Shown here piece by piece: positions 47,801 to 50,800 of a stretch of DNA of 64,000 nucleotides (within the stretch, counting starts at the first letter, position 1; each line of letters opens with the position of its first letter). The position numbers were made by a program. Origin of the DNA: Escherichia coli (GTDB taxonomy: Bacteria > Pseudomonadota > Gammaproteobacteria > Enterobacterales > Enterobacteriaceae); assembly GCF_030013595.1 (NCBI RefSeq), contig NZ_CP122768.1. One strand, 5' to 3'.

Positions 47801-50800
47801 AATTTGACGAACACTCGTGATATTTGTCACATTTTCGATTTCTTTTTGCTGTGTTTTTTTCACTTTCTCTTAACCAGATAAGAACACACACACCAACATT
47901 ATGGTATTCTGTTACAAACCCTTCCTGGATGGAGGGAAATTGAGCCAATTCTGGACCTTTGCGGCCCCTTCCGCAAAGAAAAATAACTCCCACTCCCTGC
48001 ACACGCAGCAAGCGAATGTAAATGGGACGTGACAATGTCGAAACAAGGAGCAATCCATGCAGGTCAGCAGAAGGCAGTTCTTTAAGATCTGCGCTGGCGG
48101 TATGGCAGGCACCACGGCAGCGGCACTGGGTTTTGCCCCCAGCGTAGCGCTCGCGGAAACCCGGCAGTATAAACTGCTGCGCACCCGCGAAACCCGTAAT
48201 ACCTGCACCTATTGTTCCGTAGGCTGTGGGCTGTTGATGTACAGCCTCGGTGACGGAGCAAAAAACGCCAAAGCATCTATCTTCCATATCGAAGGTGACC
48301 CGGATCACCCGGTCAACCGCGGAGCACTTTGTCCGAAAGGCGCTGGCCTGGTGGATTTCATCCACTCCGAAAGCCGTCTGAAGTTTCCGGAATACCGTGC
48401 GCCAGGTTCTGATAAATGGCAGCAAATCAGTTGGGAAGAGGCGTTTGATCGCATCGCCAAACTGATGAAAGAAGACCGCGATGCTAACTACATTGCGCAA
48501 AACGCCGAAGGCGTGACTGTTAACCGCTGGCTCTCCACCGGGATGCTGTGTGCTTCCGCGTCGAGTAACGAAACCGGCTATTTAACGCAAAAATTCTCCC
48601 GCGCGCTGGGTATGCTCGCGGTTGACAACCAGGCGCGTGTCTGACACGGACCAACGGTAGCAAGTCTTGCTCCAACATTTGGTCGCGGTGCGATGACCAA
48701 CCACTGGGTCGACATCAAGAACGCCAACCTCGTCGTGGTGATGGGCGGTAACGCCGCTGAAGCTCACCCGGTCGGGTTCCGCTGGGCGATGGAAGCCAAA
48801 ATTCACAACGGCGCGAAGCTGATTGTGATCGATCCTCGCTTTACGCGTACGGCGGCGGTAGCTGACTACTATGCCCCTATTCGTTCCGGTACTGACATTG
48901 CTTTCCTGTCAGGCGTATTGCTGTACCTGCTGAACAATGAAAAATTCAACCGCGAATACACCGAAGCCTATACCAACGCCAGCCTTATCGTGCGTGAGGA
49001 TTACGGCTTTGAAGATGGCCTGTTCACCGGCTACGACGCGGAAAAACGCAAGTACGATAAATCCTCCTGGACTTACGAACTGGACGAAAACGGCTTCGCC
49101 AAACGCGATACCACGCTGCAACATCCGCGCTGCGTGTGGAACTTGCTGAAACAGCACGTTTCCCGCTACACGCCGGATGTGGTTGAAAACATCTGTGGTA
49201 CGCCAAAAGACGCGTTCCTGAAAGTCTGCGAATACATCGCCGAAACCAGTGCACACGATAAAACTGCCTCGTTCCTGTATGCCCTCGGCTGGACGCAACA
49301 CTCCGTTGGTGCGCAGAACATTCGTACGATGGCGATGATCCAGCTGCTGCTCGGCAATATGGGGATGGCAGGCGGCGGCGTTAACGCCCTGCGCGGTCAC
49401 TCCAATATTCAGGGACTGACGGACCTGGGGCTGCTGTCGCAGAGCCTGCCGGGTTACATGACGCTGCCGAGCGAGAAGCAGACCGATCTGCAAACCTACC
49501 TTACCGCCAACACGCCAAAACCGCTGCTGGAAGGCCAGGTAAACTACTGGGGCAACTACCCGAAATTCTTCGTCTCCATGATGAAGGCCTTCTTTGGTGA
49601 TAAAGCGACGGCGGAAAATAGCTGGGGCTTTGACTGGTTGCCGAAGTGGGATAAAGGCTACGACGTCCTGCAATACTTCGAGATGATGAAAGAAGGCAAG
49701 GTCAATGGCTATATCTGCCAGGGCTTTAACCCGGTTGCCTCATTCCCGAACAAAAACAAAGTGATCGGTTGTCTGTCGAAACTGAAGTTCCTCGTCACCA
49801 TCGACCCGCTGAACACTGAAACCTCTAACTTCTGGCAGAACCACGGTGAGCTGAACGAAGTTGACTCGTCGAAGATCCAGACCGAAGTGTTCCGTCTGCC
49901 ATCGACCTGCTTCGCGGAAGAGAACGGTTCTATCGTTAACTCCGGTCGCTGGTTGCAGTGGCACTGGAAAGGTGCGGACGCCCCGGGAATTGCGCTGACT
50001 GATGGCGAGATCCTCTCCGGTATCTTCCTGCGCTTGCGCAAGATGTATGCCGAACAGGGTGGCGCGAACCCGGACCAGGTGCTGAACATGACCTGGAACT
50101 ACGCCATTCCGCATGAGCCGAAGTCGGAAGAAGTAGCGATGGAGAGCAACGGTAAGGCGCTGGCCGATATTACCGATCCGGCAACCGGTGCGGTTATCGT
50201 CAAGAAAGGCCAACAACTTAGCTCGTTCGCCCAACTGCGCGATGACGGTACGACCTCCTGTGGCTGCTGGATTTTCGCCGGTAGCTGGACGCCAGAAGGT
50301 AACCAGATGGCGCGTCGTGATAACGCCGATCCGTCTGGCCTCGGTAACACGCTGGGCTGGGCATGGGCATGGCCGCTTAACCGCCGCATTCTGTATAACC
50401 GCGCCTCCGCAGATCCGCAGGGTAACCCGTGGGATCCGAAGCGTCAGTTGCTGAAATGGGACGGCACTAAGTGGACCGGCTGGGATATTCCGGACTACAG
50501 CGCAGCACCTCCGGGTAGCGGCGTCGGGCCGTTTATCATGCAGCAGGAAGGCATGGGGCGTCTGTTTGCCCTCGATAAGATGGCGGAAGGTCCGTTCCCG
50601 GAACACTACGAGCCGTTTGAAACGCCGCTGGGAACTAACCCGCTGCATCCAAACGTTATCTCGAACCCGGCTGCACGTATCTTTAAAGACGACGCCGAAG
50701 CATTGGGTAAAGCCGATAAGTTCCCGTATGTCGGAACCACCTATCGTCTGACCGAGCACTTCCACTACTGGACCAAACACGCGCTGTTGAACGCGATTTT

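Follow-up and report, generated by a model that had tools for sequence, protein, structure and literature searches.

The window analysed here, a stretch of 64,000 nucleotides of Escherichia coli DNA, carries the genes for formate dehydrogenase-O, with fdhD on the opposite strand and fdoG, fdoH, fdoI and fdhE following one another on the forward strand (Table 1). This gene order matches that of K-12 b3891-b3895 exactly. The product of fdhD is required in formate dehydrogenase (FDH) maturation (PMC6239281). The start of fdoG probably encodes a twin-arginine (Tat) signal peptide, judging from its translated sequence, and export of FdoG by the Tat route would be expected from what is established for FdnG and FdoG.

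Table 1. Genes and sequence elements at the fdoG locus; positions are those of the window.
Feature	Position	Strand	Basis and remarks
fdhD, accessory sulfurtransferase	47030..47863	-	ORF; annotation in strain HCP5S3_I2 (identical stretch) and K-12; divergent from fdoG
fdoG, catalytic (alpha) subunit of formate dehydrogenase-O	48057..51107	+	single 1016-codon frame through UGA codon 196
FdoG signal peptide (probable), MQVSRRQFFK...ALA	48057..48155	+	S-R-R-Q-F-F-K and A-L-A site in the translation
Rfam SECIS_3 (RF01989) match	48639..48697	+	full-length covariance-model match; scores in the text
71-nt block identical in fdoG and fdnG	48639..48709	+	paralogue comparison; identical in 16 Enterobacterales loci
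UGA codon 196, almost certainly the Sec codon (predicted Mo ligand)	48642..48644	+	sole internal stop; aligned to X of 1kqf
Lower helix, 5' arm	48644..48654	+	MFE fold; partner 48679-48689
Apical stem-loop, GGUAGCAAGUCUUGCUCC	48656..48673	+	MFE fold, fdhF comparison, covariation; starts 11 nt after UGA
Lower helix, 3' arm	48679..48689	+	MFE fold; partner 48644-48654
fdoH, Fe-S (beta) subunit, 300 aa	51120..52022	+	ORF; annotation
fdoI, cytochrome b556 (gamma) subunit, 211 aa	52019..52654	+	ORF; annotation; 4-nt overlap with fdoH
fdhE, FDH formation protein, 309 aa	52651..53580	+	ORF; annotation; 4-nt overlap with fdoI

At the nucleotide level the gene shares 98.6% identity with K-12 fdoG (b3894), and the two proteins differ at one amino acid, residue 689, which is K in the window and S in K-12. 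The 44 nucleotide differences all fall outside the element discussed below, the nearest being at gene position 567. The number of the UGA codon, its peptide context, the 60 nt from the TGA onwards, the operon and its neighbours are all the same, and the selenocysteine (Sec) codon and SECIS described here are thus those of K-12 fdoG in another strain. RefSeq already annotates a single 3051-nt CDS for the gene, and does not treat it as a pseudogene. PGAP, however, calls the CDS with 100% identity ‘fdnG: formate dehydrogenase-N subunit alpha’, and the best NCBIfam model for the gene is likewise titled formate dehydrogenase-N subunit alpha, on which grounds it could be taken for fdnG. That reading is very improbable. 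Identity to K-12 fdnG is 75%, against the 98.6% for fdoG; the flanks are fdhD upstream and fdoH, fdoI and fdhE downstream, whereas K-12 fdnGHI adjoins yddG; and a second copy, more distant, is present in each genome (median 2 places). Synteny with yddG and fdnHI was not seen at the window locus. The gene is fdoG, not fdnG: the label takes the name of the family model and does not separate the paralogues.

Translation of the fdoG frame yields one internal stop among the 1016 codons, a TGA in the context DNQARV*HGPTVASLAPTFGRGAMTN, beyond which the frame is intact for a further 820 codons. The earlier note had described a lone in-frame TGA in an ARV-U-HGPTVA context, and had held that simple ORF calling would split the gene, which should be annotated as one selenoprotein. 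All of this is borne out. Mechanical ORF calling returns 48057..48644 (195 aa) and 48693..51107 (804 aa), while the family evidence treats the protein as a unit. The NCBIfam model for the FDH-N/O type alpha subunit, TIGR01553, matches at 1574 bits, above its curated cutoff of 814, in one stretch over FdoG residues 2-1015. The Pfam Molybdopterin domain occupies residues 107-589, running across the UGA, and the Pfam Fe4S4 and MGD-binding domains were also found. FdnG, as represented by PDB entry 1kqf, can be aligned across FdoG 1-1015, with the TGA opposite the X (SeCys196) of chain A in VDNQARVXHGPTVASL; the next-best PDB matches are formate dehydrogenases named ‘selenocysteine-containing’. An in-frame stop at codon 196 is also present in K-12 fdoG and K-12 fdnG, and fdhF has an in-frame TGA too. 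The 141 nt around the UGA recur at an identity of at least 99% in 4965 E. coli records, always under a full-length CDS among the matches listed.

Directly downstream of the TGA the minimum free energy (MFE) fold is a hairpin that ends at about position 48689. This and the extent of the Rfam match agree with the interval of 48642..48690 given in the earlier note, as does its proposal of a SECIS-like structure. The sequence matches the whole of Rfam SECIS_3 (model positions 1-59 of 59) with 84.3 bits (E = 1.4e-18), where the gathering score is 63, although this match is partly circular, as E. coli-type sequences probably contributed to the model. A spacer (nt 4-14) is followed by an apical stem-loop of 18 nt (nt 15-32), with a bulged U17 at 48658 and loop nucleotides G23, U24 and C25 at 48664-48666. 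The bulged U17, the loop G23/U24 and the 11-nt spacing are defining features of such elements, and the roles of these nucleotides have been described (PMC8659212). By analogy, the apical stem-loop would be the part bound by SelB.

The experimental paradigm for this kind of element is the SECIS of E. coli fdhF, which resembles that of fdoG in the C after the UGA, in the 11-nt spacer and in the peptide ARV-U-HGP; the bulged U17 and, in the loop, G23 and U24 also lie equally far from the UGA in both. The two differ in their apical stem-loop, which is 17 nt long with a GGUC tetraloop in fdhF but 18 nt long in fdoG, where an extra A-U pair closes a GUC loop or, when open, leaves the loop AGUCU. They differ also in the sequence of the lower helix and in the downstream peptide (HGPSVAGLHQS in fdhF, HGPTVASLAPT in fdoG). 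With respect to Rfam SECIS_3, the E. coli sequence departs in the lower helix, where A8-C48 and A12-G44 (model numbering) are non-canonical and the MFE fold adopts a register one nucleotide off that of the model.

Folding, the check that the earlier note proposed, returned the hairpin, but its stability relative to shuffled sequences was not significant. Folding energy did not exceed that of shuffled sequence for 49 nt (z -1.45), 40 nt (z -1.90) or 59 nt (z -0.77), and the antisense strand folds about equally well (z -1.88). Folding energy was dropped as a criterion for SECIS (z -0.8 to -1.9) and was not counted against the element, stability not being a defining feature of the family. Support for the SECIS rests instead on where the key nucleotides lie, on the match to the covariance model and on cross-species covariation. 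A judgement of this bacterial SECIS on energy alone would fail, where these other lines of evidence are informative.

For the cross-species comparison, contigs were scanned with a pattern that demanded the TGA together with the ARV and HGP codons, fixing most of columns 1-14. This gave 120 matches, from which 6 chance matches without FDH context were discarded. The same in-frame TGA was thus found in 114 FDH loci from many phyla. Given the pattern, this set is silent on Cys homologues and on the lower helix in its 5' arm. As a one-nucleotide difference sets their apical loop apart, ten fdhF-type matches were excluded from the alignment. A total of 69 distinct relatives, spread over many phyla, showed 97.7% pairing in the apical helix, with compensatory changes in four of its seven pairs, including A-U/G-C/C-G and G-C/U-G exchanges between synonymous third positions at columns 21-33 and 24-30. 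Both sides of a pair had changed in 47 cells, compared with 13.6 +/- 4 in shuffles, and the observed covariation score was attained in none of 500 shuffles. Cells were 90% paired, as against 27-50% with the partners slid, and RNAalifold recovered the 5-bp apical stem de novo. The loop nucleotide U24, which falls at third position in a Ser or Gly codon, was invariant (69/69). In the lower helix, 82-84% of cells were paired, with 0-1 pairs showing compensatory change and a 5' arm largely fixed by the pattern; comparison of its two registers gave 84.4% (Rfam) versus 81.7% (E. coli MFE), neither being clearly better. The comparative data support the apical part of the hairpin well, and the lower helix weakly.

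The earlier note had also pointed to selA, selB and selC as machinery that the genome should contain. No tRNA genes were found within the window, and the sel genes likewise lie outside it. Strain HCP5S3_I2, whose sequence agrees with the window at an identity of at least 99.97% once one IS1 is set aside, has all three, with tRNA-Sec at 69204-69298, selA at 169186-170577 and selB at 170574-172418. Among complete E. coli genomes, selAB were found in 5425 of 5426, selC in 5424 and selD in 5425.

The UGA and hairpin lie within a 71-nt block that fdoG shares with K-12 fdnG. This is the longest identical run between the two genes, the next being 37 nt, and a run of 71 nt was reached in none of 20,000 codon shuffles (maximum 62). 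E. coli fdnG thus has the same UGA and hairpin, with Sec also at residue 196, although it belongs to a paralogous operon (fdnGHI, beside yddG), its overall identity to fdoG is 75% in nucleotides and 77% in protein. Perfect runs of 71-107 nt were also found in Providencia, Photorhabdus, Yersinia, Klebsiella, Citrobacter and Enterobacter, with flanks 67-94% identical.

Identity between paralogues over 71 nt is what local gene conversion between fdoG and fdnG would also yield, and in fdoG the UGA is followed by C. UGA followed by C is a leaky termination context. It could be argued from these two points that the codon is read by a near-cognate Trp or Cys tRNA, the RNA being conserved for another purpose or merely homogenised by gene conversion. 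We give this explanation very little credence. Gene conversion with E. coli does not account for the same invariance of the block in distant members of the Enterobacterales, and outside that order the apical helix covaries. The dedicated Sec machinery is present, the crystal structure of the paralogue FdnG has selenocysteine at residue 196, and the bis-MGD cofactor is coordinated through selenocysteine in all three E. coli FDHs (PMC6239281).

A second alternative is a nonsense mutation that left fdoG a pseudogene encoding at most a 195-residue N-terminal fragment. The end of the mechanical ORF at 48644 and the non-significant folding energy of the hairpin, taken alone, are what such a mutation would predict. 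It is nevertheless highly unlikely, given that the TGA recurs in K-12 fdoG, K-12 fdnG, fdhF and the 114 FDH loci, that the intact downstream codons belong to a protein matching FdnG over its full length, that the surrounding 141 nt are so widely conserved within E. coli and that RefSeq has a complete CDS here rather than a pseudogene. The notion of two genes, a 195-aa protein up to the TGA and an 804-aa protein from the ATG at 48693, is scarcely credible even though the ORF list contains both, as the Pfam Molybdopterin and TIGR01553 matches each cross the junction without a break, the 16 codons that separate the TGA from that ATG (HGPTVASLAPTFGRGA) rank with the most conserved in the protein, and the solved paralogue FdnG is one chain.

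We therefore regard it as almost certain that the TGA at 48642-48644 is the selenocysteine codon of fdoG and that the RNA directly 3' of it is its bacterial SECIS. The mechanism would be that established for such elements (PMC8124441). The mRNA just 3' of the UGA would fold as a hairpin, the apical stem-loop of which would be bound by SelB, the Sec-specific elongation factor, via the bulged U17 and loop G23/U24. SelB would carry GTP and Sec-tRNA(Sec), the latter made by SelA from Ser-tRNA(Sec) with the selenophosphate of SelD. Once UGA196 reached the A site of the ribosome, tRNA(Sec), with its anticodon UCA, would be delivered by the tethered complex, which would compete with release factor 2 (RF2), and translation would continue in the same frame to give a FdoG of 1016 residues, in which Sec196 is predicted to ligate the molybdenum of the bis-MGD cofactor. 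For FdoG itself, SelB binding, competition with RF2, selenium incorporation and molybdenum ligation are drawn from established knowledge of the system.

The 71-nt block extends beyond the apical stem-loop to the weakly supported lower helix and, 3' of the hairpin, to about 20 nt more. Every synonymous site within it is the same in fdoG and fdnG, and the block is identical also in Providencia, Photorhabdus and Yersinia, where the flanks are only 67-80% identical. The constraint on the element may exceed what binding of SelB to the apical loop explains, and the lower and 3' part could conceivably serve a second function in Enterobacterales, although we hold the idea to be improbable. If true, the candidate functions would be ribosome pacing, exclusion of RF2 or regulation dependent on SelB, and the conservation would not stem from recurrent gene conversion or transfer.

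The presence of a Sec codon and SECIS in fdoG is correct, long known and ordinary. As the public annotation already has fdoG as one selenoprotein, the value of the present analysis is one of annotation hygiene and it adds no new biology. An ORF caller without selenoprotein logic cuts an essential catalytic subunit into pieces of 195 and 804 aa. In the public record it is the PGAP gene label alone that needs fixing, since the name ‘fdnG’ can mislead paralogue-specific analyses.

Two further observations were made elsewhere in the window. A low-GC island contains an unclassified ORF of 604 aa (55136..56950), which had no match in Pfam, NCBIfam or PDB sequence searches. The gene yiiG is interrupted by an IS1 of 768 bp that BLAST finds in the window but not in HCP5S3_I2, and because of this insertion a fixed-offset comparison of the two sequences shows thousands of mismatches.

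The catalytic gene of formate dehydrogenase-O (FDH-O), fdoG, was translated from 48057..51107 on the forward strand, giving 1016 codons with one internal stop, the TGA at 48642-48644 (codon 196; context DNQARV*HGPTVASLAPTFGRGAMTN); within 48600-48700 the sequence includes, in frame, GCG CGT GTC TGA CAC GGA CCA ACG GTA GCA AGT CTT GCT CCA ACA TTT GGT CGC GGT. The earlier note had described a single in-frame TGA as the sole interruption of the frame, in an ARV-U-HGPTVA context, and both this description and the coordinates it gave (48642-48690) are correct. Naive ORF calling does split the gene, as was also claimed, giving an ORF of 195 aa (48057..48644) and one of 804 aa (48693..51107). 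Domains and family models run across the junction and so contradict a reading of these as two separate genes. With Cys put for the stop, the NCBIfam model TIGR01553 matched FdoG over residues 2-1015 in one stretch (1574 bits; cutoff 814 bits), and the Pfam Molybdopterin domain (residues 107-589) spans the stop, flanked by Fe4S4 and MGD-binding domains. A PDB search aligned the solved paralogue FdnG (1kqf) over 1-1015 of FdoG, with the TGA codon exactly opposite the X (selenocysteine) of VDNQARVXHGPTVASL; the matches that followed were chains named 'selenocysteine-containing' formate dehydrogenase. That fdoG is a pseudogene is contradicted by conservation of both the TGA and the downstream frame: 4965 records match the 141 nt surrounding the UGA at 99% identity or more, and in each of the matches listed this stretch falls under a full-length CDS. 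The Sec196 codon and SECIS of fdoG are already known and RefSeq carries the gene as one CDS, so nothing in this is new.

The fdoG stretch is 100% identical to one CDS of HCP5S3_I2, a near-identical E. coli strain, and was found in 5425/5426 complete E. coli genomes, most often accompanied by another copy that is less similar. PGAP labels the HCP5S3_I2 CDS 'fdnG'; its neighbours are fdhD (divergent), fdoH, fdoI and fdhE. An identification as fdnG is contradicted by synteny and identity. K-12 b3891-b3895 (b3894 is fdoG) share the gene arrangement of the window locus, whereas K-12 fdnGHI adjoins yddG. Identity of the window gene to K-12 fdoG is 98.6% (44 nt differences, 1 amino-acid difference), as against 75% nt and 77% aa identity to K-12 fdnG. 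The gene is therefore fdoG, the name it already bore in the earlier note. In all PGAP records listed, 48057..51107 bears the gene symbol 'fdnG', with 'formate dehydrogenase-N subunit alpha' as its product, while fdoH and fdoI beside it are named rightly; TIGR01553, the model behind the name, is blind to the fdoG/fdnG distinction. The 4-nt overlaps of fdoH with fdoI (52019..52022) and of fdoI with fdhE (52651..52654) suggest translational coupling within the operon.

The Rfam model SECIS_3 (RF01989) matched 48639..48697 over its whole length (84.3 bits, E = 1.4e-18; gathering score 63), and the minimum-energy (MFE) fold of 48642-48690 is a two-part hairpin with a lower helix and an apical stem-loop. 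Counted from the U of UGA, the spacer between UGA and apical stem-loop is 11 nt, and the stem-loop has a bulged U17, with G23 and U24 in its loop. These match the features regarded as defining in a review, in which U17 and G23 are SelB contacts (PMC8659212). In fdhF, the formate dehydrogenase-H (FDH-H) gene, U17 and G23/U24 hold the same positions; the sole difference listed is in the apical stem-loop, which is 17 nt with a GGUC loop in fdhF and 18 nt with a GUC loop and an extra closing A-U pair in the window. Over 60 nt starting at the TGA, the window does not differ from either K-12 fdoG or K-12 fdnG. The SECIS_3 match and the placement of U17, G23 and U24 as in fdhF thus uphold the claimed SECIS-like structure 3' of the TGA. 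Folding served less well as a check: the hairpin forms and its features match those of fdhF and fdnG, but the folding energy was not significant (z = -1.45, -1.90 and -0.77 for three cuts of the hairpin; -1.88 for its antisense strand), and folding alone could not have decided whether a SECIS is present.

Scanning one genome per species with the pattern GCN CGN GTN TGA CAY GGN CC returned at least 120 stretches; of 120 among the matches listed, 104 were of FDH-N/O type (HGPT...), 10 of fdhF type and 6 were chance matches. The FDH-N/O-type matches listed yielded 69 distinct 59-mers, aligned without gaps, in which pairing in the apical helix (columns 18-25 with 29-35) reaches 97.7% and four of its seven pairs change on both sides, with exchanges of A-U/G-C/C-G at 21-33, G-C/U-G at 22-32 and A-U/C-G/G-C at 24-30. 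Cells with both sides changed numbered 47, compared with 13.6 +/- 4.0 after shuffling (0/500 shuffles reached the observed value), and 90% of cells were paired in the true register as against 27-50% with partners slid by 1-3 columns. Columns 21, 24, 30 and 33 fall on the third bases of Val, Ala/Ser, Leu and Ala/Gly codons respectively, and the covariation therefore lies at the level of the RNA rather than of the protein. All 69 sequences keep loop U24 (column 27), which is the last base of a Ser or Gly codon, and unguided RNAalifold recovered the same 5-bp apical stem. This covariation, which is seen outside Enterobacterales too, and the structure of FdnG contradict read-through without selenocysteine or pure gene conversion.

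The lower helix, 82-84% paired with hardly any compensatory change, draws weak support from the alignment. The invariance of its 5' arm carries no meaning because the arm was largely set by the search pattern, and its register in the Rfam consensus is not that of the MFE fold from E. coli. Such weak support agrees with the review cited above, which puts the loss of read-through caused by unpaired bases in this lower part at only about 25% (PMC8659212). Two FDH loci of the scan, in Desulfovibrio-like and Mailhella MAGs (L039, L082), keep the ARV-U-HGPTV context with a different apical sequence (GUACCGGCUCUGGCAGAG); as G23/U24 are missing from the usual place and the proteobacterial apical helix is broken, these elements presumably belong to another SECIS subtype.

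Within the 64-kb window there are no tRNA genes or sel genes. One IS1 aside, identity between the window and HCP5S3_I2 is 99.97-100% over 1-59107 and 100% over 39001-64000, and the HCP5S3_I2 genome carries tRNA-Sec, selA and selB. With K-12 genes as queries, 5425 of 5426 complete E. coli genomes were found to carry selAB, 5424 to carry selC and 5425 to carry selD. Neither of the two findings that would have spoken against a selenoprotein, a missing hairpin or missing machinery, was made. The SelB-GTP-Sec-tRNA(Sec) complex would bind the apical stem-loop and, from there, decode UGA196 in competition with RF2 (PMC8124441, PMC8659212). Sec196 would then act as Mo ligand. The analysis itself shows the anatomy of the sequence, its conservation and covariation, and that the machinery is present; for the window strain, we infer SelB binding, selenium insertion and Mo ligation alike.

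Coordinates of hairpin elements, selenocysteine genes and further Rfam matches
Feature	Position	Strand	Source
Lower helix	48644-48654 pairing with 48679-48689	+	MFE fold
Apical stem-loop GG-U-AGCAA-GUC-UUGCU-CC	48656-48673	+	MFE fold
tRNA-Sec	69204-69298 in HCP5S3_I2 genome		
selA-selB	169186-172418 in HCP5S3_I2 genome		
naRNA4, REP-like nucleoid-associated RNA	28266..28343	+	Rfam, 78.6 bits
ES036/CssrF	23220..23261	+	Rfam, 37.9 bits, barely above threshold
ClpQY (hslVU) promoter hairpin	9511..9568	+	Rfam
L31 ribosomal-protein leader, upstream of rpmE	4847..4899	-	Rfam

The one mild surprise is the degree to which the block around the Sec codon is frozen. The longest identical run between fdoG and fdnG, 71 nt at 48639-48709, falls exactly on the SECIS element, with all synonymous sites identical; the second-longest is 37 nt, and 20000 codon shuffles gave a longest run of 62 nt. 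In Enterobacterales, 16 loci drawn from both paralogues, those of Providencia, Photorhabdus and Yersinia among them, have perfect runs of 71-107 nt, with 180-nt flanks 67-94% identical. The end of the block lies 12 nt outside the Rfam match and about 20 nt outside the hairpin; constraint beyond the needs of base-pairing is possible, as is gene conversion or transfer.

Four other Rfam matches in the window all exceed their gathering scores (see table). A 768-bp insertion at 45534-46301, missing from the otherwise near-identical HCP5S3_I2, is bordered by a 9-bp target duplication (45525-45533, 46302-46310) and holds ORFs of 91 aa (45589..45864) and 167 aa (45783..46286), which are as long as InsA and InsB of IS1. 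From its size, duplication length and ORF sizes it is a putative IS1; it interrupts yiiG (45045..45377 and 46221..46877, reverse strand) about 0.7 kb from fdhD. Between yiiE and fabY, an island of 36-42% GC (about 54000..57400) contains an uninterrupted 604-aa ORF (55136-56950, reverse strand) that had no match in Pfam, NCBIfam or PDB sequence searches and is full length in about 1061/5426 complete E. coli genomes, O157:H7 among them. It is cut by PGAP into a 'transposase' and a 'hypothetical protein, incomplete', apparently a mis-annotation. Its sequence C-K-S-A-K-D-R-T is a phosphatase-like CX5R motif and may resemble the SopB/IpgD active site.
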